From the NCBI GenBank assembly GCA_039586795.1, contig JBDHJS010000067.1, positions 1 through 14,326 on the forward strand: a DNA stretch of 14,326 nucleotides. Direction: 5' to 3'. The translations under genes and the position numbers were made by a program. Positions 1,121 to 13,925 of the stretch are shown piece by piece. How positions within the stretch are numbered: position 1 is the first letter of the stretch; each line of letters begins with the position of its first letter. Under the pieces are notes generated by a model, which was not told where the DNA came from, searched no databases, and saw only the letters and a program-made list of their open reading frames with translations. This DNA comes from Gemmatimonadota bacterium (GTDB lineage Bacteria > Gemmatimonadota > Gemmatimonadetes > Palauibacterales > KS3-K002).

Positions 1121-1153
1121 GGTAGACGGTGGACGGTAGACGGTAGACCGTCC
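1121..1153. repeat. Heptamer tandem repeat GGT(A/G)GAC x4 with overlapping inverted repeat
   Basis: ggtagac-ggtggac-ggtagac-ggtagac at 1121-1148. ggacggt (1131-1137) is complementary to accgtcc (1147-1153). Confidence 0.75.
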
Positions 1154-1185
1154 GTCCGCGCCATATGTCCGACTGGGCATGGGCT

Positions 1186-1238: not shown

Positions 1239-1574
1239 ATGATCCGTGTTCTCGCTGCAACGCTCGTTTTCGCCCAGATGTGGGCCTTTTCCGCGCCAGT
1301 CGCCAGTTCGGCGGCGCCCGCGGAGGCCGCACACCCATGCGAGCAAGTCGTGGGCCAGAATGACGCGAACGTGGTCACCTCGACTCATGACTGTGCCTGC
1401 TGCGGGATGGACGATTGCTGCGGACCATTCACCTGCACAGCGCCCGTCTTGGCGCTGTTGGAAGGGACAGTGCAGAAGTCGATGGCACCGCTAGTGACGG
1501 AGCACGGTCGACAGACGACCTGGGTCGCGGAGAGCTTCCTGGCGCCACCCTTACCACGTCCTCCTCAAGCCTAG
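1239..1574 (+). CDS. Secreted Cys-rich small protein with C-terminal Pro-rich RPP motif (CutF/CruR/DUF2946-like leader, putative arrest peptide)
   Basis: 111 aa from the ATG at 1239. It has a signal-peptide-like N-terminus (MIRVLAATLVFAQMWAFSAPVA), 7 Cys (HPC...HDCACCGMDDCCGPFTC) and the C-terminus APPLPRPPQA. It lies directly upstream of the metal efflux operon. Confidence 0.7.
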   Translation: MIRVLAATLVFAQMWAFSAPVASSAAPAEAAHPCEQVVGQNDANVVTSTHDCACCGMDDCCGPFTCTAPVLALLEGTVQKSMAPLVTEHGRQTTWVAESFLAPPLPRPPQA

Positions 1575-1664: not shown

Positions 1665-2918
1665 ATGGCCGTAAGAAAGATTTGTATTCTGGTCGCGCTG
1701 CTCCTGCTGTGGTATTCGCCGGGGCGAGCGCAGACGAGCGATACGCTCCGGCTGGTCGACGCCATCGCGTTCGCCCGGCAGGCGAGTCCGAGATTGCAGA
1801 CGGCGCGTCTCGAAGCCGAGGCCGCATACGCGCGCGTACCAGGAGTGGGCGCGCTGCCCGACCTGCAGGTCGGACTCGGATTGATGAATCGGCAGGTCTC
1901 CGATTTCGGAAGTACATCGAACCCGATGATGATGAACACGGTCCAGCTGGCTCAGCGATTCCCGTGGCCGGGGAAGCTGGGCTTCAGCCAGGACCGGGCG
2001 GCGCTGTTGGCCGTGGCCGAGAAGCTCGACGCCGAAGAGGTGGAGCGACAGCTCATCGCCCGGGTGAAGTCGGTCTATTTCCAGATCGCCTACCTGGACC
2101 GGGCACTCATCGTGATGCAGGAGACGCGTTGGCTGCTCCGCGACTTCCTCGATGTCGCGTCGGCCATGTACGGCGTCGGCGACGCGCTGCAGCAGGATGT
2201 TCTGCAGGCGCAGGTGTCGGTGGCGCAGATGACAGAGGACATCACGGTGGTGGAGCAGAACCGACTGGCGATGGGGGCGCGCCTCAACGCGCTGCTCGGC
2301 CGGCCGGCTACATCGCCGGTGGCCGCGCTCGAGCTCCCGGAACCGGGCGGCGACCTTGCTTCCGTGGACAGCTTGATGGCACTCGCCGCTCAGAGCCGCC
2401 CAGCGTTGAGAGCGGCGCGTCAACGAGTCAGCGCGGCGGAAGCGGGCTACCGGGCGGGCCGTCGCATGTCCTACCCGGACTTCACGCTCATGGTGCAGTA
2501 CGGGCAGCGGCCCGACTTCCCCGACCTCGCCACCTTCATGGTCGGTGTCAGCATTCCCGTCTGGGCGGGAAGCAGCCCACGTGACGAGGCGCAGGCGGTG
2601 CATGTGATGGAGCGATCGAAAGAGCTCGAGCTCTACAACGAGACCTACGCGCGGATCGCCGAGCTGCGTGCCGAAGCGGAGCGCGCCCGCAGGCTCGCCG
2701 ATCTCTACTCCACTTCGATTCTGCCGCAGGCGCGCGCCGCGGTGGAGTCCGCCGTTTCAGCCTATCGGGTGGGCCGCGTCGACTACATGACGCTCCTGGC
2801 CAACGAGATGACCGTGAACCGTTATCGGATCGAGAGCGTGCGCCTCACCGCGGAGTATCACAGCGCGGTGGCGCAAGCGGAAGCCATAGTAGGAGCAGGA
2901 TTGGAAGGTACACGATGA
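1665..2918 (+). CDS. cusC: TolC/CusC-family outer membrane efflux protein
   Basis: Signal peptide from the ATG at 1665 (MAVRKICILVALLLLWYSPGRAQ). OEP-type motifs LPDLQVGLG, QRFPWPGKL, QQDVLQAQV, YPDFTL, GVSIPVW and ILPQARAAVESAVSAYRVG. Its stop overlaps the adaptor start (ATGA). Confidence 0.88.
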   Translation: MAVRKICILVALLLLWYSPGRAQTSDTLRLVDAIAFARQASPRLQTARLEAEAAYARVPGVGALPDLQVGLGLMNRQVSDFGSTSNPMMMNTVQLAQRFPWPGKLGFSQDRAALLAVAEKLDAEEVERQLIARVKSVYFQIAYLDRALIVMQETRWLLRDFLDVASAMYGVGDALQQDVLQAQVSVAQMTEDITVVEQNRLAMGARLNALLGRPATSPVAALELPEPGGDLASVDSLMALAAQSRPALRAARQRVSAAEAGYRAGRRMSYPDFTLMVQYGQRPDFPDLATFMVGVSIPVWAGSSPRDEAQAVHVMERSKELELYNETYARIAELRAEAERARRLADLYSTSILPQARAAVESAVSAYRVGRVDYMTLLANEMTVNRYRIESVRLTAEYHSAVAQAEAIVGAGLEGTR

Positions 2919-4204
2919 GAATGGACAGACTGAGCGTTGTCGTTGCCGCGGTCATGGTTTTGGCGTGCGGCGGTTCGGAAGAAGAGTCGCCGATGCCGGG
3001 GATGACGGCGGAAGAGCACGCCATGCATCAGGGCGGGAATACGGGCGTCACCGACAGCACGGGGCAGGCCGTTCGTCAGGCCGTGCATCTGACAGCCGAA
3101 CAAGAACGCGCCCTCGGCGTGGTTTACACGACCGTGGCTCGCGATCGCCTGGTACGGACGATACGAACGGTGGGGCTGATCGAGGCGGCAGAATCGAGCA
3201 TCGCGGATGTGACGCTGAAGATCGAGGGCTTCGTCGAGAGGCTGCACGTCAACACGACCGGCGAGTCGGTGCGTCGTGGTCAGCCGCTGTTGACGCTGTA
3301 CAGCCCGATGCTCGTCGCGGCTCAAGAAGAACTGTTGATGGCAAAGCGCCTGGCGGCGCAGGTCGATTCCAGCGCCAGCGAAGCGTGGAGTAACGCACAG
3401 CGGATGTTAGAGGCAGCCCGCCGTCGACTGGCCTATTGGGACATAACTCCTGAACAGATCGAGCGGGTCGAACGTACCGGCGAAGTTACCAAAACTCTCA
3501 CGTTCGTGGCGCCAGTTAGCGGGATCGTGCTCGAGAAGGATGTCTTCGAGGGCCAGAGGGTCATGCCTGGCCAACGGCTCTATCGCATCGCCGACCTGTC
3601 GACGGTGTGGGTCGAGGGCGAGCTGTTCGAGCAGGATCTCCAATTCGTCCACGCGGGTTCGCAGGCGCATATCGAGGTGGCGGCGTACCCCGGCGTCCAT
3701 CTGATGGGCCACGTGAGCTTCGTCTATCCGACCGTTGACGAGCGCAGCCGCACGAACCGGATGCGACTCACCGTGGCCAACCCCGAGCTCCGACTCAAGC
3801 CCGGAATGTATGTGACGGTCTACTTCGATGCCGAGATCGGAAACGACGTCATTTCCGTCCCCATCGATGCGGTCGTCGCCACGGGCGAGCGGAACCTGGT
3901 CTTTCATCGCCATGAGGATGGCTCTCTTCATCCACATGAGGTCGTGCTTGGCGCCCGCGCCGGCGGCCGGGTGCTGGTCCTGGCGGGGCTCGAGGAGGGG
4001 GTAGAGATCGTGGCATCCGCCAACTTCCTCGTCGATGCCGAGTCGCGACTCGGCGCCACGGGTGGCTCGATGCCGGGGATGCAGCACGCCGGTCATGGCT
4101 CAGCCGTTGAACCGGGGCAAGAGCACACCCAACACATCGAACAGCCGATGGATACATCGGGCGAGCACGAAGGTCACGAAGGCGGAGGGCATCAGCATGA
4201 TTAG
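2915..4204 (+). CDS. cusB: RND periplasmic adaptor (CusB-like membrane fusion protein), probable lipoprotein
   Basis: Lipobox VLAC. MFP motifs GFVERLHVNTTGESVRRGQPLLTLYSPMLVAAQEE, APVSGIV, IADLSTVWVEG, VYPTVDERSRT, LKPGMY and ANFLVDAESRL. Both termini are Met/His-rich. Confidence 0.92.
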   Translation: MRMDRLSVVVAAVMVLACGGSEEESPMPGMTAEEHAMHQGGNTGVTDSTGQAVRQAVHLTAEQERALGVVYTTVARDRLVRTIRTVGLIEAAESSIADVTLKIEGFVERLHVNTTGESVRRGQPLLTLYSPMLVAAQEELLMAKRLAAQVDSSASEAWSNAQRMLEAARRRLAYWDITPEQIERVERTGEVTKTLTFVAPVSGIVLEKDVFEGQRVMPGQRLYRIADLSTVWVEGELFEQDLQFVHAGSQAHIEVAAYPGVHLMGHVSFVYPTVDERSRTNRMRLTVANPELRLKPGMYVTVYFDAEIGNDVISVPIDAVVATGERNLVFHRHEDGSLHPHEVVLGARAGGRVLVLAGLEEGVEIVASANFLVDAESRLGATGGSMPGMQHAGHGSAVEPGQEHTQHIEQPMDTSGEHEGHEGGGHQHD

Positions 4205-7200
4205 CAAGGTCATTGCCTGGTCCCTCAATAACCGTTTCCTGGTGTTGCTGGGTAGTGCGGCGATCGTGTTGGCCGGCATCTGGGCCATCGGCTCGACGCC
4301 GCTGGATGCGATTCCCGACCTATCAGACGTTCAGGTCATCATTCAGACGGACTTCCGGGAGCAGGCGCCGCAGATCGTCGAGGACCAGGTTACGTATCCG
4401 ATTACTTCCGAGATGCTCAAAGTGCCGGGCGCCCGGGTCGTGAGAGGCTACTCCTTCTTCGGCCTGAGCCTGGTCTATGTGATCTTCGAGGACGGCACCG
4501 ACATCTACTGGGCCCGTTCACGGGTGCTCGAGTACCTGAACGGCATTCGCGGGCAACTCCCCGCTGGCGTCGAGCCAACTCTCGGGCCCGATGCCACGGG
4601 TGTCGGCTGGGTGTTCGAGTACACCCTCGAGTCGGACAGCCTCGATCTCGCCGAGCTTCGGACGCTTCAGGACTGGTACCTTCGTTACCAGTTGACGGCG
4701 GTGCCCGGCGTGTCAGAGGTGGCCAGCGTCGGCGGCTTCGTGAAGCAGTACCAGGTCGAAGTGAATCCCGAACGACTTCGAGCGTTCAACATCCCTGTCA
4801 CAAGAGTCGCTCAGGCCATCGGATCTCACAACATAGATATCGGCGCCCGCGTGCTGGAGATGGGCGGCCGGGAGTACATGATCCGCGGACTCGGCTACCT
4901 GCAGGGCGTAGAGGATATCGAGAACGTTGCCGTCGGCGCGACGCCCAACGGCACGCCGATCCGCGTGGCGGACGTGGCGACTGTGCAGTTAGGTCCGGCG
5001 CCACGGCGCGGCGCTACCGACCTCGATGGCAAGGGAGAGGTAGTGGCGGGGATCGTCGTCTTGCGATTCGGCGCCGACGCCCTCGGGACGATCGAGGCGG
5101 TGAAGGAGCGACTGCGTGAGATAGAGCAGGGATTGCCCGCCGGCGTACGCTTACGCACGGCCTACGATCGCAGCGACCTCATCCACCGGGCGATCCACAC
5201 ATTGCGCGAGAAGCTCGTAGAGGAATCTCTGATCGTCGCCCTCGTCGCGCTGGTCTTTCTGCTGCACGCGCGATCGGCCCTCGTCGCCATTGTCACTCTG
5301 CCTCTCGGGATCCTGATCTCGTTCATCGTCATGCGGCTCATCGGCGTGAACGCGAACATCATGAGTCTGGGCGGCATCGCCATCGCCATCGGCGCCATGG
5401 TCGATGCGGCTATCGTGATGATCGAGAACATGCACAAGCACATCGAGCGCGATGACGGGAGCAGGTCACGCTGGGACATCGTTCAGGAAAGTGCCAACCA
5501 GGTGGGACCGCCGCTCTTCTTCTCACTGCTCATCATCACGTTCAGCTTCCTGCCGGTCTTCGCGCTGGAGCAGCAGGAGGGTCGGCTGTTCAAGCCGCTG
5601 GCGTTCACCAAGACCTTCGCCATGGCCGGTGCGGCGTTGCTGTCGATCACCTTGGTACCGGTGCTGATGGGCTACCTGATCAGGGGGAAGATTCGGCCCG
5701 AGTCCCGAAACCCGGTGAATCGGGGGCTCATGTGGGCCTACCGGCCGATCATCGATTTTGCGGTGCGGCGGCCATTGCTCGTCATCGTGGGCGCGGTGGT
5801 CGTACTGGCGGTAACGGTCCTTCCGTGGCGGCGGCTCGGCAGCGAGTTCATGCCACCCCTCCAGGAAGGCTCAATCCTCTTCATGCCAACGACGGTGCCC
5901 GGCGTATCCATCGCTCAGGCCCGCAAGATCATGACGTACCAGGACAGCGTGCTCGCGTCGTTCCCCGAGGTCGATGTCGTGCTGGGTAAGGTGGGGCGCG
6001 CCGAGACCGCTACCGATCCCGCACCCCTCGACATGTGGGAGACCACAGTCACTCTGAAGCCGAAGAGCGAGTGGCGTGATGCGATGACGTACGAACGCCT
6101 CGTCGCGGAGATGGATCGCGCGGTGAGCCTTCCGGGCGTGACTAACGCCTGGACGATGCCCATCAAGGGTCGCATCGACATGCTTGCTACTGGGATCCGT
6201 ACTGCGGTCGGCATCAAGATCTTCGGCCCCGACCTCGAGGCGCTGCAAACCCTGGGCGAGCAGGTCGAGCGGATCATCCAGGAGGTTCCCGGTACTCGGA
6301 GCGCCTTCGCCGAACGTGGCGTTTCAGGCTACTACGTCGACATCGAGATCGACCGCGCCGAGGCGGCCCGCTATGGCTTGAACGTCGGCGACGTTCACGG
6401 CGCCATCATGGCGACCGTGGGGGGTATGACGGCGGCCGTAACCGTGGAAGGTCGCGAGCGCTATGCGGTGAACGTTCGTTACCCGAGAGAGCTGCGCGAC
6501 GATGTGCAGAAGCTGCGAGAGGTCTTGATTCCGGCGATTGGCGACGCGCAGATCCCGCTTGGCCAGGTAGCGAGCGTGGAAGTGCGGCAGGGCGCCATGG
6601 CCGTAAAGACTGAGAACGCGTTTCCGATGACGACGATTTACGTCGATATCGGCGAACGCGATGTCGGGAGTTACGTGCGTGAGGCACAGCAGGCTGTGAA
6701 CTCACAGCTAGCTTTGCCGCCCGGATACTCGTTGGTATGGAGCGGCCAGTACGAGTTCATGCAGCGCGTCATCCAGAAGTTGAGGGTAGTCGTACCGGTA
6801 ACGCTGGCGATCATCTTCATGCTGCTCTACTTCAGCTTCGGCGGCGTCGCCGAATCGCTGATCGTCATGCTCGCCTTGCCCTTCTCGTTGGTCGGCGGTG
6901 TTTGGTTCCTCTGGCTTCTCGACTACAACACGAGCGTTGCTGTCTGGGTGGGCTTCATTGCACTTGCCGGTGTGGCGGCGGAAACCGGCGTGGTGATGCT
7001 CATCTACCTGGACGAAGCCTACTACGCCCGCCTGAAAAAGGGTCTCATGCGCACGAGGTCCGATGTCGCGGCGGCCGTCCGCGAAGGCGCGTTGGAGAGG
7101 CTGCGGCCAAAGATCATGACCGTAACAGCGATCATGGCAGGTCTCGCGCCGATCCTTTGGAGTCGCGGCACGGGCGCCGATGTGATGAAGCGCATCGCCG

Positions 7201-7358
7201 CTCCTATGGTGGGTGGGATGGTGAGCGCGACGGTTCTTACGCTGGTCGTCATCCCCGCGATCTACCTGGTTTGGCGAAGTTGGCTGGTTCGTCGCGAGGC
7301 TCACGCATCGGACGCAGAAGAAACTTTGCAGGAGACGGTAACGGCGTCCATTGTTTGA
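4197..7358 (+). CDS. cusA: CusA/CzcA-family heavy-metal RND permease, Cu(I)/Ag(I) type
   Basis: The likely start is the ATG at 4197 (MISKVIAWSLNNRFLV), overlapping cusB. Motifs DAIPDLSDVQVII, GPDATGVGWV and GAMVDAAIVMIEN. Met-triad equivalents FMPTT, PLDMWET and RIDMLATG. Also AGVAAETG and RLRPKIMT. Confidence 0.96.
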   Translation: MISKVIAWSLNNRFLVLLGSAAIVLAGIWAIGSTPLDAIPDLSDVQVIIQTDFREQAPQIVEDQVTYPITSEMLKVPGARVVRGYSFFGLSLVYVIFEDGTDIYWARSRVLEYLNGIRGQLPAGVEPTLGPDATGVGWVFEYTLESDSLDLAELRTLQDWYLRYQLTAVPGVSEVASVGGFVKQYQVEVNPERLRAFNIPVTRVAQAIGSHNIDIGARVLEMGGREYMIRGLGYLQGVEDIENVAVGATPNGTPIRVADVATVQLGPAPRRGATDLDGKGEVVAGIVVLRFGADALGTIEAVKERLREIEQGLPAGVRLRTAYDRSDLIHRAIHTLREKLVEESLIVALVALVFLLHARSALVAIVTLPLGILISFIVMRLIGVNANIMSLGGIAIAIGAMVDAAIVMIENMHKHIERDDGSRSRWDIVQESANQVGPPLFFSLLIITFSFLPVFALEQQEGRLFKPLAFTKTFAMAGAALLSITLVPVLMGYLIRGKIRPESRNPVNRGLMWAYRPIIDFAVRRPLLVIVGAVVVLAVTVLPWRRLGSEFMPPLQEGSILFMPTTVPGVSIAQARKIMTYQDSVLASFPEVDVVLGKVGRAETATDPAPLDMWETTVTLKPKSEWRDAMTYERLVAEMDRAVSLPGVTNAWTMPIKGRIDMLATGIRTAVGIKIFGPDLEALQTLGEQVERIIQEVPGTRSAFAERGVSGYYVDIEIDRAEAARYGLNVGDVHGAIMATVGGMTAAVTVEGRERYAVNVRYPRELRDDVQKLREVLIPAIGDAQIPLGQVASVEVRQGAMAVKTENAFPMTTIYVDIGERDVGSYVREAQQAVNSQLALPPGYSLVWSGQYEFMQRVIQKLRVVVPVTLAIIFMLLYFSFGGVAESLIVMLALPFSLVGGVWFLWLLDYNTSVAVWVGFIALAGVAAETGVVMLIYLDEAYYARLKKGLMRTRSDVAAAVREGALERLRPKIMTVTAIMAGLAPILWSRGTGADVMKRIAAPMVGGMVSATVLTLVVIPAIYLVWRSWLVRREAHASDAEETLQETVTASIV

Positions 7359-7396: not shown

Positions 7397-8152
7397 ATGA
7401 TGAAGATGTCTGGGATCTTGGCTACCCTAATTGGTTTGAGCTTGGTCGCCTGTAACGATGACCCCACGGACCCGCGGAACGGACAGACACAAACGGTATT
7501 CGATGTACAAGCGGATCGAATAGAGACCTTCGAAGATGTTGACATCCATGTCCGGGTCGACGGTGGCGGCGGTCCGCTGCAGATGGAGCATGGGGAGATG
7601 CACGTCGACGGAGTGGGCGGCTCCGATTGGATGCACGAGATGGAAGCGATGGGGGATGGCTGGGTGGCTCATGCCATGTTCTTCGAGCCCGGCATCCACC
7701 AACTGCACTTCCAGGGTCGCCGCCACGGCGGCGGCGACGAGAACTTCGGCGAACACATGGTCGAGGTTCACCGCCAACATCGGTTGATCGGCGACTATTG
7801 GGCCGAGCTTTCATTCGACCCGGCGCCAATCGTCGCAGGCACGGAGGCGACCGTTACGCTGACCATCTTCGAGATCGACGGTCAGTCGCCCGGGGCGCCG
7901 GCTACCGGTCTGACGCTGGTGGCGCACCTGCACGATCCGAATGATGTCGAATCCCCCGTCTCCTTCGTCGAGGGCACGGCCGGAACCTATGAAGTGACAT
8001 ACACCTTCGACGATGTCGGCCTCTACGAACTGCACGTCACGATCGGCACGGACGAGGGCCTGTTTCATTTCCCGGTATTCGCGTCTCTCGATGACATCGG
8101 GACGCGTGGCCACGGTCACGGAGGAGGCGGTCACCACGGAATGATGCCGTAG
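7397..8152 (+). CDS. His/Met-rich lipoprotein, probably two YtkA/FixH-like beta-sandwich domains; putative periplasmic metal-binding protein
   Basis: AAGGA RBS and lipobox LVAC. Segments MEHGEMH and WMHEMEAM, a YtkA-like GTYEVTYTFDDVGLYELHVTI, and C-terminal GHGHGGGGHHGMMP. Confidence 0.7.
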   Translation: MMKMSGILATLIGLSLVACNDDPTDPRNGQTQTVFDVQADRIETFEDVDIHVRVDGGGGPLQMEHGEMHVDGVGGSDWMHEMEAMGDGWVAHAMFFEPGIHQLHFQGRRHGGGDENFGEHMVEVHRQHRLIGDYWAELSFDPAPIVAGTEATVTLTIFEIDGQSPGAPATGLTLVAHLHDPNDVESPVSFVEGTAGTYEVTYTFDDVGLYELHVTIGTDEGLFHFPVFASLDDIGTRGHGHGGGGHHGMMP

Positions 8153-8174: not shown

Positions 8175-10181
8175 ATGGATCACGGACATCACCCCGACCA
8201 CGGGACGTCGACCGGAAACGGCGGTGGCCACGGCCATCACGCTCACATGGTGGCCGACTTCCGCCGCCGGTTCTGGATCTCACTGGCGCTCACGATACCC
8301 GTCTTAGCACTTGCGCCGCTCATCCAGAGGTTCCTGGGTATCGAAGGTGCGCTCGACTTCCCCGGCGACTCCCTGGTCCAGGCCCTTTTAGCGACCGTCA
8401 TCTACTTCTATGGCGGTTGGCCTTTCCTGAAGGGCTTTGTGAAGGAGATGGGCGACCGGAGGCCAGGAATGATGACGCTGATCGCCCTGGCAATCACCGT
8501 CGCCTATGCCTACAGCGCGGCCGTTGTCCTGGGCCTGCCCGGCGAAGGCTTCTTCTGGGAACTGGCCACGCTGATCGACATCATGCTCCTGGGCCACTGG
8601 GTCGAGATGCGGTCGGTGATGGGAGCATCCCGGGCGTTGGAGAAACTGGTCGAGCTACTCCCCGCAGAAGCGCATCGCCTTCGTGAGGATGGATCCTCCG
8701 AAGACGTCCCCGTGACCGAGGTCGTCCCGGGCGATCGGGTGCTGGTGAAACCCGGCGAGAAGATCCCCGTGGACGGAGTGGTGGTGGCAGGTCGCACGAC
8801 GGTGAATGAAGCGGCGCTCACGGGTGAGAGCGTGCCCGTAGAGAAGGGCGAAGCGGATAACGTGATCGCGGGCGCCGTTAACGGCGAGTCGGCCATCACG
8901 ATTGATGTCCAGAAGACGGGTGGCGATACCTATCTGTCACAGGTCGTGGAAATGGTGCGCCTGGCCCAGGAGACACGCTCTCGCACTCAGGATCTCGCAA
9001 ACCGGGCAGCGCTCTGGCTAACCGTTACTGCGGTGACCGTCGGTACCGTGACGCTAACGGTCTGGCTGCTCGTCGGCCGCGACTTCAATTTCGCCCTCAG
9101 TCGTATGGTCACTGTCATGGTGATCGCATGTCCGCACGCGTTGGGCCTGGCGATTCCCCTCGTCGTGGCGGTATCCACAGGCTTGTCGGCCAGAATGGGT
9201 CTACTGATTCGCGATCGCACGGCGTTCGAGCGGGCCCGGACTCTCGATGCGATCGTCTTCGACAAGACCGGAACACTCACCCGCGGCGAGTTCGGCGTCA
9301 CGGATGTGGTGGACCTGGTCGGGGGGAGCGAAGAGGAAGTCCTGCGCCTGGCGGCGTCGCTGGAAAGCCAGTCGGAGCACCCTATCGCCGCCGGCGTGGT
9401 GCGGAGCGCCGGGGAACGGCAGGTGAAGTTTGGCGTTCCGAAGAACTTTCGAGCTATACCGGGCAAGGGCGCTGAAGCCGATGTGGACGGACGCAACGTC
9501 AAAGTTGTGAGCCCCGGCTACCTAACTCAAAACGGTCTGTCAGTGGATAGCGATCGGGTAGCCGAGCTGAACAAAGAAGGGAAGACGGTCGTTTATTTGC
9601 TTGTCGATGACCGGGTGCACGGCGCCATTGCCCTCGCCGACATCATCCGCGACGAGTCGCACGAGGCGCTGCGGCGGCTCAAGGCGATGGGCATCCAGGT
9701 GTTGATGCTCACGGGCGACGCGGAAGCCGTGGCGCGCTGGGTCGCCGGCGAGCTGGAGCTGGACGAGTATTTCGCCGAAGTACTGCCGGAACAAAAGGCC
9801 AACAAGATTCGGGAGGTCAAGTCGCGGGGGCTGACCGTGGCGATGACGGGCGACGGTGTGAACGACGCCCCGGCGTTGGTCGAGGCGGATGTCGGCATCG
9901 CGATCGGTGCCGGCACCGACGTGGCCGTGGAGTCGGCGGATATCGTGCTCGTGCGTTCCGATCCGCGCGACGTGACCTCGCTGGTCGAGCTGGCCCGGGC
10001 GACGTACCGGAAGATGGTTCAGAATCTGATGTGGGCGACCGGCTATAACGTCGTGGCGATTCCACTGGCGGCGGGTGTTTTGTACAACGCGGGCATCGTG
10101 CTTTCTCCCGCGGCCGGCGCCGTTCTCATGTCTCTGTCGACTGTGATCGTCGCCGTAAACGCGCGACTCCTGAAATTGTAG
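8175..10181 (+). CDS. copB: Copper-translocating P1B-type ATPase, P1B-3 (CopB-like)
   Basis: His-rich N-terminus (MDHGHHPDHG...GHGHHAHM) with no CxxC domain. Motifs TGES, transmembrane CPH (IACPHALGLAIP), DKTGTLT, SEHP, TGDGVNDAPAL, YN and MSLST. Confidence 0.93.
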   Translation: MDHGHHPDHGTSTGNGGGHGHHAHMVADFRRRFWISLALTIPVLALAPLIQRFLGIEGALDFPGDSLVQALLATVIYFYGGWPFLKGFVKEMGDRRPGMMTLIALAITVAYAYSAAVVLGLPGEGFFWELATLIDIMLLGHWVEMRSVMGASRALEKLVELLPAEAHRLREDGSSEDVPVTEVVPGDRVLVKPGEKIPVDGVVVAGRTTVNEAALTGESVPVEKGEADNVIAGAVNGESAITIDVQKTGGDTYLSQVVEMVRLAQETRSRTQDLANRAALWLTVTAVTVGTVTLTVWLLVGRDFNFALSRMVTVMVIACPHALGLAIPLVVAVSTGLSARMGLLIRDRTAFERARTLDAIVFDKTGTLTRGEFGVTDVVDLVGGSEEEVLRLAASLESQSEHPIAAGVVRSAGERQVKFGVPKNFRAIPGKGAEADVDGRNVKVVSPGYLTQNGLSVDSDRVAELNKEGKTVVYLLVDDRVHGAIALADIIRDESHEALRRLKAMGIQVLMLTGDAEAVARWVAGELELDEYFAEVLPEQKANKIREVKSRGLTVAMTGDGVNDAPALVEADVGIAIGAGTDVAVESADIVLVRSDPRDVTSLVELARATYRKMVQNLMWATGYNVVAIPLAAGVLYNAGIVLSPAAGAVLMSLSTVIVAVNARLLKL

Positions 10182-10202: not shown

Positions 10203-11228
10203 ATGAACTCTCCTGACAGCGGAATGAAGAAGGGGGCGGGCAGGATTGCCGAGCGACTGGCGCTCGACGCCCTGGACTACGCTGTACCGAAGCTCGCGGA
10301 GCGGGCGCCCTACTTTATCGGTGGCCTGACCGCGTCGTTGATCGCCGTATTGATACTTACGGGCCTCTATCTGGCCCAGTTCTACAATCCGAACCCGGCC
10401 GGCGCCCACGACAGCGTGCTCTACATCATCACCCGTGCTCCATTCGGCGATTGGATACGGAGTCTACACTATTGGGCAGCAGGCGGCGTCGTGGTCAGCG
10501 TCACGGCTCACCTGGCTTACGTCTTCTGGCGTCGCTCCTACAAGCGGCCCCGTGAGGTAACGTGGTGGGCGGGCGTCGCCATGGCCGGCCTTCTCTTTCT
10601 GCTGATCGTTACTGGCACCGCGCTCCGCTTCGACCAGGAGGGCTTCGAGGCCCTGGCGCACTTCGTGGCCGGAGGAGAGCTGACAGGTGCGTTGGGTGCG
10701 TTCTTCACCGAGAGCTTCACGCTGAGCACGCCGCTTCTGACCCGGGTGTTCAGCCTGCACACTAGCCTGTTACCTCTGGCGCTTCTGGCGCTGGTCGGTC
10801 TCCACTTCTGGCTCATTCGGCAGCACGGTATTCGCGCCGACAGCTCAGAGACAATCGTCTTTCGCCGGCATCTCAAGCGGCTGTCGGGTGCGGCCCTTAT
10901 CGTCTTTGCAGTGATAGGTGTGCTGGCGGTCGTTTTTCCGGCAGGGCTCGGCTACCCAGCGGTGGCAGGCTACGAAGTGACCAAGCCGTTCTGGCCGGCG
11001 CTCTGGGTGTATGGACTCGAGAACCTGTTGGGCGCCTGGGGCATGGTCGTCGGGCCGGCCGCGCTCTTCGCGTTTTTGATAGCTGTGCCGCTGTTGGACA
11101 GAAGGACGGATGACGGGCCGGGCCGCAACGGTTGGGTCGGCTGGGTCGGGCTGATCTTCGGGGTAACGGTCCTCGCGCTGTGGCTCTACGGCGCCTTCAG
11201 TGCGCCACAGCAGCATATCGGCATGTGA
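10203..11228 (+). CDS. Orphan cytochrome b/b6-like di-heme membrane protein (cyt b6 plus subunit IV-like, about 7 TM)
   Basis: Motifs YFIGG, LILTGLYLAQFYNP, AHDSVLYI, GDWIRSLHYWAA...AHL, SYKRPREVTWWAG and TRVFSLH...GLHF. All four heme-ligand His are present. The PEWY position reads PFWP. Confidence 0.85.
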   Translation: MNSPDSGMKKGAGRIAERLALDALDYAVPKLAERAPYFIGGLTASLIAVLILTGLYLAQFYNPNPAGAHDSVLYIITRAPFGDWIRSLHYWAAGGVVVSVTAHLAYVFWRRSYKRPREVTWWAGVAMAGLLFLLIVTGTALRFDQEGFEALAHFVAGGELTGALGAFFTESFTLSTPLLTRVFSLHTSLLPLALLALVGLHFWLIRQHGIRADSSETIVFRRHLKRLSGAALIVFAVIGVLAVVFPAGLGYPAVAGYEVTKPFWPALWVYGLENLLGAWGMVVGPAALFAFLIAVPLLDRRTDDGPGRNGWVGWVGLIFGVTVLALWLYGAFSAPQQHIGM

Positions 11229-11252
11229 TACCACTCTCAGGAGATGATAACA

Positions 11253-11813
11253 ATGCAGGTTGGGAAATCGGTCTTTAAACGTCGCGGATATTGGATCGTG
11301 CTTGCGGCAACATTGATGACTGCGACGTCGGACGCACGGGGGCATGAGGATGCCGTATTGAGGAGTTCCGTTTCGGCCATCGCGGCAGGAGACACGCTGC
11401 CGCTCAGTGGGGCCGACTTCTCATCCGGAACCGCCTACGAACTCCGCCTTCTCGGCGCACTGCGTGAATACGAGTTGCGGAGCATCGACGTGGGTCCCGA
11501 AGGCACGTTCGAGATAGCGTTGCCGATCTCATCGGGAGTCGCCCCGGGCGTCTACAAGCTGGTGGCCGTCGCCCCCGACGGCGATCGCGTTGCCAGCCTC
11601 GACCTGACCGTGCTTGAGCCGAGGTTGGCAGCGACCGATGGGAACGACGATTCGAAGGGCAGTGATGGATCGGGACAATCAGACGCACGCGAGATGGCGC
11701 GGGCCGACGAGATACCGATCGAGCGGTCACGGGGCGGCGCCGAGTGGGGCGTCATCGGACTGGTGGTCGGCTTGGCGGCCGGCCTCGGGATCATGTTGAT
11801 CCGCCGTTCGTGA
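11253..11813 (+). CDS. Secreted, C-terminally membrane-anchored beta-sandwich protein, CopC-like
   Basis: AGGAG at 11239-11243 favours the ATG at 11253 over 11244. The signal peptide ends ...SDARG, so the mature protein would start HEDAVLRSS. It contains GVYKLVAVAPDGD and a C-terminal TM WGVIGLVVGLAAGLGIMLIRRS. Confidence 0.65.
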   Translation: MQVGKSVFKRRGYWIVLAATLMTATSDARGHEDAVLRSSVSAIAAGDTLPLSGADFSSGTAYELRLLGALREYELRSIDVGPEGTFEIALPISSGVAPGVYKLVAVAPDGDRVASLDLTVLEPRLAATDGNDDSKGSDGSGQSDAREMARADEIPIERSRGGAEWGVIGLVVGLAAGLGIMLIRRS

Positions 11814-11856
11814 CAGCGAGACGAGTAGAACCAGGAGAAACAGAAAGGGGAGACAG

Positions 11857-12330
11857 ATGGCCAGAGGTTTCTTTGGGAGGCAAATCGCCGCCGTGGTCTG
11901 TGTTGCCGGGGCGATCGTGCTGTCCGCATCGTCGGCCGTGGCGCAGACGGATGAGCAGGCCATAGCGGCGACGGTCGAGGCCGTCTTCGCGGCCGGCGAG
12001 CGGGCGGACTACGCGGCTCTCGATACGCTCTACGCCGGCGAAGACTTGACGATCATCGAGGGCGCGGGCATAGACCGGGGGTGGACGGAGTATCGAGACC
12101 ACCACCTGAAGCCCGAGCTCGAGGCATTCAAGAGCTTTGTCTATCGGCCCTATGAAATAGAGGTCTACGCCGTCGGCTCATTGGCCTATGCGATCTTCCG
12201 CTACGATCTGAAGATAGAGCTCGAGGACCGTACAGTGGACAACGTGGGGCGAGGGACGGCGATCCTGGAACAGCGCGGCGAGCGCTGGGTCGTGAGGCAC
12301 ATGCAGACGACAAGTCGGCCTCGTCGCTGA
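11857..12330 (+). CDS. Secreted NTF2/SnoaL-like (DUF4440-type) protein
   Basis: GGGGAG RBS and signal peptide ending ASSAVA. NTF2-like pattern DEQAIAATVEAVFAAGERADYAALDTLYA...IIEG...GRGTAILEQRGERWVVRHMQTTS, plus the His pair YRDHHL. Confidence 0.78.
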   Translation: MARGFFGRQIAAVVCVAGAIVLSASSAVAQTDEQAIAATVEAVFAAGERADYAALDTLYAGEDLTIIEGAGIDRGWTEYRDHHLKPELEAFKSFVYRPYEIEVYAVGSLAYAIFRYDLKIELEDRTVDNVGRGTAILEQRGERWVVRHMQTTSRPRR

Positions 12331-12345
12331 CCGACGACGCTACCT

Positions 12346-12573
12346 CTAATCGTCGATCTCGAGTTCGTACTTTTCAATTCGGTAGCGCAGCGTGTCCCGG
12401 GTCAGCGAGAGCAGTTCCGCGGCCCGGGTCTTGTTCCCTTGCGTGCGTTGTAGTGCCTGCCGGATGATCTCTTGCTGTAGCTTCTCCAGGTTCACTCCAC
12501 CGGCCGGCAACTGGAAGCCGGGCTCGAGATCCAGTGGGCTGCCGCCCGGCTTCATCTCGTCGGGCAGGTCTGC
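12346..12573 (-). pseudogene. 3' remnant of a sigma54-dependent (NtrC-family) regulator: Fis-type HTH only
   Basis: The frame reads ADLPDEMKPGG...FQLPAGGVNLEKLQQEIIRQALQRTQGNKTRAAELLSLTRDTLRYRIEKYEL. An in-frame TAA lies immediately upstream (12574-12576). No AAA+ or receiver domain is present. Confidence 0.72.
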
Positions 12574-12704: not shown

Positions 12705-12917
12705 CTACCCGATGAGGGTCGCTTTGTAGCCAGCAGCGGCCACGACGCTGATGATCGCGTCGAGGGTGACGTCGTCCGTCAACTCTATGAGAACGGTCTT
12801 GTCTTCCAGGGAGACTTCCACGTTCCTGATGACGGTCAGACTACTAAGCGCCGACCTAACTTTGTCGGCGCACCCGTCGCAATTCATGTCCGGCACACTA
12901 AGTATGACGTTCTTCAT
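12705..12917 (-). CDS. copZ: Heavy-metal-associated (HMA) domain protein, CopZ-like chaperone
   Basis: 70 aa from the ATG at 12917 (GAAGGGA upstream): MKNVILSVPDMNCDGCADKVRSALSSL...VEVSLEDKTVLI...AAAGY. It has the MxCxxC motif and the terminal GY of the HMA fold. Confidence 0.85.
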   Translation of the reverse strand: MKNVILSVPDMNCDGCADKVRSALSSLTVIRNVEVSLEDKTVLIELTDDVTLDAIISVVAAAGYKATLIG

Positions 12918-12935
12918 CGAGTCCCTTCGTCCCGG

Positions 12936-12975
12936 TCCCCGAATCCCCGAATCTCGTAACCCCCGCATCCCAACG
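12936..12975. repeat. Degenerate octamer tandem repeat in the SHOCT-copZ spacer
   Basis: tccccgaa-tccccgaa-tctcgtaa-cccccgca-tcccaacg, period 8. Confidence 0.5.
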
Positions 12976-13326
12976 CTACTCGATCTTCTCCAGCCGATCA
13001 AGCTCCTTCTCATACTCCTCCATCGAGATCCGCCCCTCGATGAACCGCTGTTGCAGGTCCTCCAACGGCGATGCCGGCTTCGCCCGAACCTGCACCGGCT
13101 CTCTCTTGCTGTCTCGATCGTACGTGGCGTCGACCATCGGCCGTCGGCTCCGGCCCAGGCGGCCTTTCACCCGGGACTCCAGATCCGACAGGCGGCGGTC
13201 GTCCTCGTTCCGCATCTGCTCCACTTCGCCATGCTTCTTCTTGTGGCGACGGCCCCAGCCGCACATGCGGCCACAGCCCCAGAAGATCAGAGCGAACAGC
13301 GCGATGAATCCCCAGCCGAACTCCAT
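12976..13326 (-). CDS. Single-pass membrane protein with C-terminal SHOCT domain
   Basis: GGAGG RBS. N-terminal TM FGWGFIALFALIFWG followed by CGRMC and a basic stretch. The C-terminal SPLEDLQQRFIEGRISMEEYEKELDRL matches the SHOCT pattern. Confidence 0.8.
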   Translation of the reverse strand: MEFGWGFIALFALIFWGCGRMCGWGRRHKKKHGEVEQMRNEDDRRLSDLESRVKGRLGRSRRPMVDATYDRDSKREPVQVRAKPASPLEDLQQRFIEGRISMEEYEKELDRLEKIE

Positions 13327-13343
13327 AAGCCTGCCTCCAGGCG

Positions 13344-13925
13344 CTAGAGGGTATCCCCCGTCGCCGCGCCCGGCTTGATTTCCTCGATCTCACGAGCCGC
13401 CCGCTCCAGGATCTCCTGCACCCGGGCCAGCTCTTCGGGAGTCTCCGACCAGCGGAGGCCCCTCTCAAATGTAACCTGGGCAAGCTTCCTAAACGAGCGC
13501 GTGAGATCGGTCATCTCGGTCCGGAAAAACCTGTCGGTAAAGCTACTGACCCGGTCCAGGATGTCGTCCACCACGTCACCGTTCTCCTTCAAGAACTCCC
13601 GCCCCTCGTCGGTGATGCTATAGACTTTCTTCCCCTCCTTCTCCTCGCAGACCACATACCCCTGGTCCTCGAGCATCTGTAGGGTGGGATAGACGGAGCC
13701 GGGGCTGGCTGAATAGCAGCCGCCCGATTCCTCTTCAAGAGCGCGCATCACCTCGTAGCCGTGCATCGGCTTCTCGGACAACAGGCGCAGAATCACGTAC
13801 TTGAGATCGCCGCGATCGAACATGCGAAAGCGCATGCCCCGAGGCCCCGATCCGAAGCTGAACCCTTTGGGGCCGAAGCAGGCGGCGAACATGTCGAAGC
13901 CTCGGTCCCTGCGTCTTCTACTCAT
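13344..13925 (-). CDS. PadR-family transcriptional regulator (YqjI-like)
   Basis: AGGAG RBS. Winged-HTH motif RGDLKYVILRLLSEKPMHGYEVMRALEEESGGCYSASPGSVYPTLQMLEDQGYV...KKVYSITDEGREFL, and C-terminal ILERAAREI helix. Confidence 0.92.
   Translation of the reverse strand: MSRRRRDRGFDMFAACFGPKGFSFGSGPRGMRFRMFDRGDLKYVILRLLSEKPMHGYEVMRALEEESGGCYSASPGSVYPTLQMLEDQGYVVCEEKEGKKVYSITDEGREFLKENGDVVDDILDRVSSFTDRFFRTEMTDLTRSFRKLAQVTFERGLRWSETPEELARVQEILERAAREIEEIKPGAATGDTL

Follow-up and report, generated by a model that had tools for sequence, protein, structure and literature searches.

A conserved Cys- and Pro-rich leader gene ahead of a Gemmatimonadota copper efflux operon is a probable CutF-type translational switch

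A short gene with a cysteine-rich middle and a proline-rich end directly precedes a cusCBA-type copper efflux operon in a member of the Gemmatimonadota, and comparison with its relatives makes it quite likely that the gene is a cis-acting copper switch of the CutF type, whereby copper would prolong a ribosomal pause at the terminal prolines, the pause would open an RNA helix and the pump would be turned on. The stretch of DNA analyzed here (the window; 14,326 nt) is the entire contig C25 of a genome that is 97.8 % complete. The preliminary description of the window had proposed a leader that ends in PPLPRPPQA-stop ahead of cusCBA and a copper ATPase; this ORF, 111 aa long, occupies positions 1239 to 1574 of the forward strand, and the identities of the downstream genes were confirmed by Pfam and NCBIfam matches. 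The leader's export, copper binding, stalling and regulation are properties that we infer by analogy.

The N-terminus of the leader is a likely Sec signal peptide (1239–1313, +; the end is approximate), with a hydrophobic stretch that covers residues 4–12 in the window leader (mean Kyte-Doolittle value 2.6) and is found in all 28 aligned leaders (mean 2.1–3.3). It is followed by a putative metal-binding or disulfide site (1338–1436, +) that consists of Cys34 and the cluster C52-x-C54-C55-x4-C60-C61-x4-C66; the seven cysteines previously described as one cluster are all there, but the cluster proper comprises six (C52–C66), with C34 located 18 residues upstream. A spacer of fixed length and free sequence (1437–1544, +) leads to the proline-rich C-terminus and the stop codon (1545–1574, +), for which the family consensus is P-x-x-P-P-P-[RKQ]-A-stop, the window leader having R107 where Pro is usual. 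The alternative start at ATG 1179 was rejected: the two closest relatives (P0003 and P0005) support 1239, and the latter start is also favored because a candidate promoter (1186–1213) lies downstream of ATG 1179. The arginine codon is not an assembly error, given that contigs from three sequencing runs of two studies (X1, X2 and X4) cover it without differences.

Scans against Pfam and NCBIfam returned nothing meaningful for the leader ORF, and its reality as a gene was assessed by comparison. We defined a leader as a frame of 85 aa or more that ends 20–300 nt ahead of cusC and has three or more Cys upstream of a PP located among its last 15 residues. Among 47 cusC loci, 46 of which belong to Gemmatimonadota according to the record titles, 5 were set aside for want of upstream DNA. 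Of the 42 loci that were left, 27, nearly all from Gemmatimonadota, have such a frame immediately ahead of cusC, with about one expected by chance (48 occurrences in 543,540 background strand-bases, or 0.025 expected per locus), whereas 15 loci had no leader; the counts of loci and relatives throughout this work come from related genomes and thus do not represent independent samples. The ratio dN/dS was 0.18–0.71 in all 13 pairs tested, and the differences at codon positions 1, 2 and 3 numbered 311, 242 and 443, respectively. The leader ORF is a real, conserved gene under purifying selection. The broader proposal of the preliminary description, that a conserved and probably exported Cys/Pro leader of the CutF/CruR class likely gates the copper efflux operon through translation, is supported by the comparison. 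In the host genome, neither the rule scan nor a profile search revealed a second leader, the one weak profile match being discarded for containing a stop codon. A metagenome scan with the single leader protein yielded one partial match.

The leader family is highly divergent: the 28 aligned proteins share 14–36 % identity with the window leader, and only C60, C66, P104, P108 and P109 are invariant. A profile built from leaders only had matches in 37 of 61 genomes, among them the own genome, with two of the matches weak and partial, and it recovered 21 leaders outside its training set. By inspection, the next ORF of these held-out leaders was OEP-like in 12 cases, broken OEP-like in 2, an uncharacterized lipoprotein in 5 and another gene in 2. 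Among 1.84 billion representative sequences, the profile detected 352 clusters at E ≤ 0.001; the best 150 of these were analyzed, and as one lacks the terminal PP, the counts below refer to 149 relatives, which overlap with the set of 49 locus leaders. The most constant property of the family is spacing, measured from the last PP to the nearest Cys within 30–60 residues ahead of it: 42–43 residues in 145 of the 149 relatives (best 150 of 352 clusters) and in 46 of the 49 locus leaders, and 42 (C66 to P108) in the window. In the same set from the best 150 of 352 clusters, two residues follow the terminal PP in 127 of 149 relatives.

The residue before the last PP is almost always a third proline (Pro 140, His 5, Arg 2 and Gln 2 among the 149 relatives from the best 150 of 352 clusters; Pro 45 and Arg 2 among the 49 locus leaders), and the two closest relatives of the window leader (68 % and 66 % identity), which keep all seven cysteines, end in PPP-Q-A. 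Judging from these alignments, the arginine of the window leader represents a seldom-seen replacement within a PPP motif. The suggestion that RPP is an arrest motif of the SecM/ApdA/CruR type therefore did not survive comparison: none of the 49 locus leaders contains R-x-P-P, and Arg two residues ahead of PP was seen, as RPPP, in 5 of 149 relatives (best 150 of 352 clusters). Of the features expected to be conserved, the hydrophobic N-terminal stretch, C60 and C66 and the terminal PP are kept, but RPP is not, its place being taken by PPP.

The number of cysteines varies from 3 to 8, and some relatives with 3 Cys are rich in His, the 7-Cys pattern being common to the window leader and its two closest relatives. 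Because the commonest count is 5 (62 of 149; best 150 of 352 clusters), the family is not metallothionein-like; the window leader, with 7 Cys among 111 residues, only 2 of them (C60 and C66) invariant, has no metallothionein match in Pfam, and the notion of a new metallothionein-like multi-Cys variant is not supported. A language-model search for look-alikes returned 30 clusters, of which 29 are unnamed (the three shown are 113–116 aa long) and one, a 109-aa protein from Bacteroidota with a score of 0.96, belongs to DUF6660 (PF20365); the DUF6660 HMM gave no match in the genome at E ≤ 10, and we treat this look-alike as a lead only. Several variations on the theme were also observed. One genome (G011) carries three leader copies; the leaders of L076 and L087 precede genes other than cusC; and in L079, L080, L084, L085 and L086, the position directly after the leader is taken not by cusC but by a gene for an uncharacterized lipoprotein of about 370 aa. 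A protein resembling this lipoprotein, without a Pfam match, is also encoded in L021 (630–1757).

Among the characterized copper-responsive leaders, CutF of Rhodobacter capsulatus (cutFOG) ends in PEPEGPPPRL; copper or loss of EF-P causes the ribosome to stall, which opens a stem-loop over the cutO Shine-Dalgarno sequence, and a PPP-to-PAP change abolished the regulation (bioRxiv 10.1101/2025.02.05.636593). CutF acts in cis only (PMC9973294). The window leader resembles CutF in its size (about 110–120 aa), Sec-type N-terminus, an upstream Cys combined with a Cys cluster, the predicted stem-loop over the Shine-Dalgarno sequence of the next gene, and the copper detoxification cargo. Furthermore, the distance from the last Cys to the last PP is 42 residues in both (C73 to P115 by the published CutF numbering), and two residues follow the prolines in PPPRL-stop of CutF just as in PPP-[RKQ]-A-stop of the leader family. 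The window leader, which comes from another phylum (Gemmatimonadota), is likened to CutF by layout, and there are differences: the cargo is an RND pump and an ATPase rather than a multicopper oxidase, C-x2-C-x4-C-x5-C stands where CutF has CxxxC, and the window copy has RPP in place of PPP, although its family is like CutF in this respect (PPP in 140 of 149; best 150 of 352 clusters). Because CutF has PPP here and lost regulation upon the PPP-to-PAP change, the window copy may pause more weakly.

Both the mechanistic class and the OEP/CusC context have been published, and the window adds a Gemmatimonadota member. In a 2023 survey, OEP/CusC is the commonest downstream neighbor of CutF-like genes (PMC9973294, section 11), and the same paper names CusD, SilD and CzcI (PMC9973294); the Cus system, as well as variants of the Cys motif allowed among CutF-like proteins, were also described elsewhere (PMC8456105). 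The window operon accordingly shares its genomic context with the OEP/CusC-linked proteins of the survey and does not, as had been proposed, extend the regulatory class to RND operons. The filter of that survey admits proteins of less than 150 aa that jackhmmer reaches from CutF seed clusters and that have a Sec signal peptide according to SignalP, PP among the final 15 residues and a same-strand gene within 1000 nt (PMC9973294); the window leader has 111 aa, P108-P109 and cusC 90 nt downstream, and a hydrophobic stretch is seen at its N-terminus as in all 28 aligned leaders. Gemmatimonadota are mentioned neither in the main text of four papers on such leaders, the survey included, nor in the small supplement files of the survey, the large table of which (File S1) could list members. 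The literature searched yielded no publication on a Gemmatimonadota CutF-like leader, with the same reservation for File S1 of the 2023 survey.

The other precedent is CruR (Bp2923; DUF2946/PF11162) of Bordetella pertussis, which employs a RAPP motif together with Rho termination, is followed by an intergenic region of 162 nt, and mediates the shut-off of an importer by copper (PMC9426467); the arrest has been demonstrated and is EF-P-independent (PMC12992588). Here too, an upstream ORF with a Cys motif and a terminal PP at a fixed spacing heads a copper operon, and the window leader contains a CxxC motif (C52-x2-C55), but it lacks R-x-P-P, is separated from cusC by a 90-nt gap with an anti-Shine-Dalgarno helix, precedes an exporter and has no Pfam match; the last Cys stands 42 residues ahead of PP compared to 48 in CruR (C93 to P141 by the published numbering). 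The preliminary description had pointed to DUF2946 (PF11162; cut-off 23.7), but none of the 28 leaders matches this family at E ≤ 10, a search of the own genome misses the leader locus, and the matches in 3 of 100 relatives, which span most of the protein length, are weak (15.7–17.3 bits); no leader reaches the cut-off and, by score, the leader is not a DUF2946 member. A CruR-like logic, in which an intrinsic Arg-dependent arrest at RPP would keep the operon on until metal releases the arrest and allows Rho termination, could draw on the Arg that adjoins PP in the window and on the presence of Rho in the genome. We nevertheless deem it highly improbable: R-x-P-P is missing from 49 of 49 loci, the two closest relatives lack the Arg, the spacing is that of CutF and not of CruR, and an efflux pump that is shut off in copper would respond in the wrong direction. 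With the 42-residue spacing in common with CutF, and with CruR set apart by its spacing of 48, its RAPP, its use of Rho and its opposite sign, the leader most likely works like CutF.

The feature that the preliminary description had not named is an anti-Shine-Dalgarno helix at the leader stop codon, a predicted RNA switch. A pyrimidine run lies immediately 3' of the leader stop in most loci, and its complement is the cusC Shine-Dalgarno sequence 70–145 nt further on. In the window, the predicted 5' arm (1572–1582, +) consists of the stop codon and TTTCTCAC and pairs with the 3' arm (1651–1661, +), which contains the Shine-Dalgarno-like GAGAGA of cusC (GAGAGG in most relatives); the C-G pair usually present at the first position after the stop is U-A here (1575:1658). 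With downstream start codons picked by hand, the stop junction and the ribosome-binding site (RBS) are expected to form 5 or more pairs in 37 of 47 loci, compared to 12 of 205 gene pairs from the own genome that served as the background and were delineated by crude gene calls. The positives divide into 22 of 28 training loci and 15 of 19 held-out loci (two of the 21 held-out leaders have no clear start and were left out); the value for the window is 11.3. The cognate arms reach –14.9 kcal/mol versus –11.4 ± 0.4 for permuted combinations, and none of 10,000 permutations was as low. Paired changes on both arms were seen across loci; these were counted per locus because the MAFFT alignment of the intergenic regions is out of register at the 3' arm, a procedure that picks the best register and hence is biased towards pairing. 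In eight loci of a second family, the helix has another sequence, is centered on the stop codon and pairs just upstream of the Shine-Dalgarno sequence. Collectively, these observations lead us to predict that the leader stop codon lies in a helix that hides the cusC ribosome-binding site, even though the region overall folds no better than its shuffles (z –1.0) and the RBS arm pairs best of all with the stop junction in just 10 of 28 loci.

We also modeled a ribosome paused at PP. When its footprint is masked, opening the RBS becomes cheaper by 2 kcal/mol or more in 24 of 28 loci, a count that comes without a control set, and the cost drops from 10.5 to 7.8 kcal/mol in the window; in the held-out loci the cost falls in 16 of 19 and rises in 3 of 19. 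The modeled footprint ends at the third nucleotide after the stop and covers about half of the helix, and after masking the Shine-Dalgarno sequence is just 0.43 unpaired. An alternative explanation is plain translational coupling, whereby any ribosome that ends at the leader stop would open the helix without metal sensing and the leader would be a small secreted protein that binds or buffers copper. A ribosome at the stop codon indeed covers more of the 5' arm than one stalled at PP and opens the RBS as well (mean 9.9 versus 10.4 kcal/mol), and the mature part of the leader is Cys/His-rich. This explanation, which we consider unlikely, leaves unaccounted for both the spacer of fixed length and free sequence (145 of 149 relatives; best 150 of 352 clusters) and the invariant terminal prolines; moreover, CutF, which is laid out in the same way, does not function in trans and is degraded once it has been exported, according to the CutF reports.

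Under the preferred model of a CutF-type switch, cusC would be off by default because its Shine-Dalgarno sequence is paired with the leader stop codon and the 8 nt that follow it, a pairing that is predicted and backed by the paired changes. As in CutF, the nascent leader would be exported co-translationally by Sec, and, with PP at the peptidyl-transferase center, the length of the spacer would place the Cys cluster at SecY's periplasmic mouth. In the absence of copper, disulfide-driven folding and the resulting pull, together with EF-P, would complete the chain and the helix would reform; with copper, the EF-P-type pause would last and the ribosome would cover the 5' arm, so that cusC could initiate. 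Translation of cusB and cusA would follow through coupling at the overlapping stops and starts, whereas genes further distal would respond only via polarity or mRNA stability. Both EF-P and Rho are encoded in the genome.

The operon itself appears to be devoted to copper, with a cusCBA of the Cu(I)/Ag(I) type. The cusC-like gene, the proposed directly gated one, encodes an outer-membrane efflux protein (1665–2918, +; PF02321, E = 5e-40), and comparison with relatives indicates that its start is most likely ATG 1665, 90 nt past the leader stop, rather than GTG 1620, which was dropped. The following genes lie on the same strand and either overlap or are 15–43 nt apart. The cusB-like adaptor (2915–4204, +; PF16576, E = 6e-77) overlaps the cusC stop and is followed by cusA, an RND permease of the CusA/CzcA type (4197–7358, +; TIGR00914 above the cut-off) that aligns with Escherichia coli CusA with 1147 bits and has Met at all three positions of the metal site, which we take to be M573, M623 and M672 of the E. 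coli protein. Next come a His-rich predicted lipoprotein with an Ig-like domain (7397–8152, +; Filamin, E = 8e-6, and a weak YtkA match) and a copper-translocating P1B ATPase (8175–10181, +; TIGR01511, 604 bits compared to a cut-off of 397) with a His-rich N-terminus and a CPH motif, presumably of the CopB type. The genes for a cytochrome b-like protein, an exported or membrane protein of unknown kind and a SnoaL-fold protein (10203–12330, +) are probably part of the same operon. With the three-Met CusA and the copper ATPase, the operon is of the copper type throughout, which speaks against a variant of the model in which the same stall-and-open switch responds not to copper alone but to Ag(I), a different soft metal or the thiol/disulfide state of the periplasm. 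The latter scenario is quite unlikely in our estimate, although the CutF model as described needs disulfide formation for the pull, the Cys number among relatives ranges from 3 to 8 (best 150 of 352 clusters) with some His-rich members having 3, and 5 held-out leaders precede the uncharacterized lipoprotein and not cusC. The remainder of the window consists of an acetyl-CoA synthetase-like gene, recognized from its sequence, which diverges from the leader and is truncated at the end of the contig (3–1030, –), and, convergent with the copper operon, genes for a PadR regulator, a small membrane protein with a SHOCT-like end and an HMA-domain protein (12705–13925, –).

The candidate promoter of the operon is of the sigma70 type (1186–1213, +), with TTGCAA at 1186–1191 and TACACT at 1208–1213 separated by 16 nt; it was read by eye, has 8 of 12 matches and falls below the scan threshold, and similar boxes occupy the same place in L001 and L070. 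A promoter and terminator scan of the window found nothing and hence lends no support to an intrinsic terminator or attenuator. The –10 box of the window is 25 nt upstream of the leader ATG, whereas a –10-like TAnnnT box lies 4–10 nt before the ATG in 30 of 48 leaders, of which 29 lack a Shine-Dalgarno sequence, compared to 109 of 2467 background starts; a –35 box resembling TGGAAC or TCGACA is found about 17 nt above it (L003–L089). Many of the relatives' leader transcripts are therefore probably leaderless or nearly so. Contigs from an RNA library span the leader in part and connect it with cusC at a depth of 2–4, but this coverage may stem from DNA carry-over and is not taken here as a sign of transcription.

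The preliminary description had it that the operon has no local copper regulator; this is true of the 14-kb contig, but the genome encodes a CsoR-family protein next to a heavy-metal ATPase-like gene on another contig (C53). A CsoR-box-like pattern over the –10 box (1206–1219, 2 mismatches) was rejected as an operator, occurring at the chance level (1 versus 0.81 expected), and was not seen in the closest loci. The MerR family has six matches in the genome, and the one inspected has no copper neighbors. ATAC-N4-GTAT palindromes, possible CsoR operators, were observed in G000 at C53:62140, C53:51149, C106:61912 and C106:61934, one at the promoter of the CsoR-family gene and a tandem pair on C106. 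Short GGTAGAC-like repeats occur between genes at both copper loci, in the window (1121–1160) and in L051 upstream of the CsoR-family gene, and might be a genome-wide intergenic repeat.

Among the 15 cusC loci without a leader, 5 (L018, L025, L032, L039 and L046) have a divergent HAMP histidine kinase upstream of cusC, with 50–71 % identity to the L039 copy, and a response regulator was seen in three; no close kinase homolog was found within 3 kb in the 27 leader loci, one of which has a 29 % match. Two-component transcriptional control thus possibly replaces the leader at such loci. At some leader-less loci, cusC is preceded by HMA or YHS genes. The window itself contains, at 12346–12555 (–), a lone Fis-type HTH fragment that matches, over 51 aa and with 61 % identity, the final part of a gene of contig C97, which adjoins the best match in this genome to the L039-type kinase and regulator; from this similarity, the fragment looks like a remnant of a response regulator.

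The 2023 survey counted CutF-like genes ahead of CusC-type pumps and left open whether they work as CutF does (PMC9973294). The leader family described here provides comparative support for CutF-like action, in the form of the 42-residue geometry, the proline end and the helix that hides the Shine-Dalgarno sequence and is kept by paired changes. As the leader ORFs carry no Pfam or NCBIfam label, annotation misses the likely regulator of the operon. The natural variants of the family, which comprise PPP, RPP and HPP ends, 3–8 cysteines and two helix sequences, make up a test set for how a periplasmic metal might hold a ribosome. More tentatively, and with somewhat more doubt than conviction, we suggest that Gemmatimonadota run a whole tripartite copper pump from a CutF-type switch alone, with a constitutive and often leaderless sensor mRNA and the stop codon inside the anti-Shine-Dalgarno helix, and that this arrangement is evolutionarily interchangeable with a two-component system. 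If so, the change from PPP to RPP in the window leader would show that a two-proline pause suffices when it is combined with an enlarged Cys cluster.
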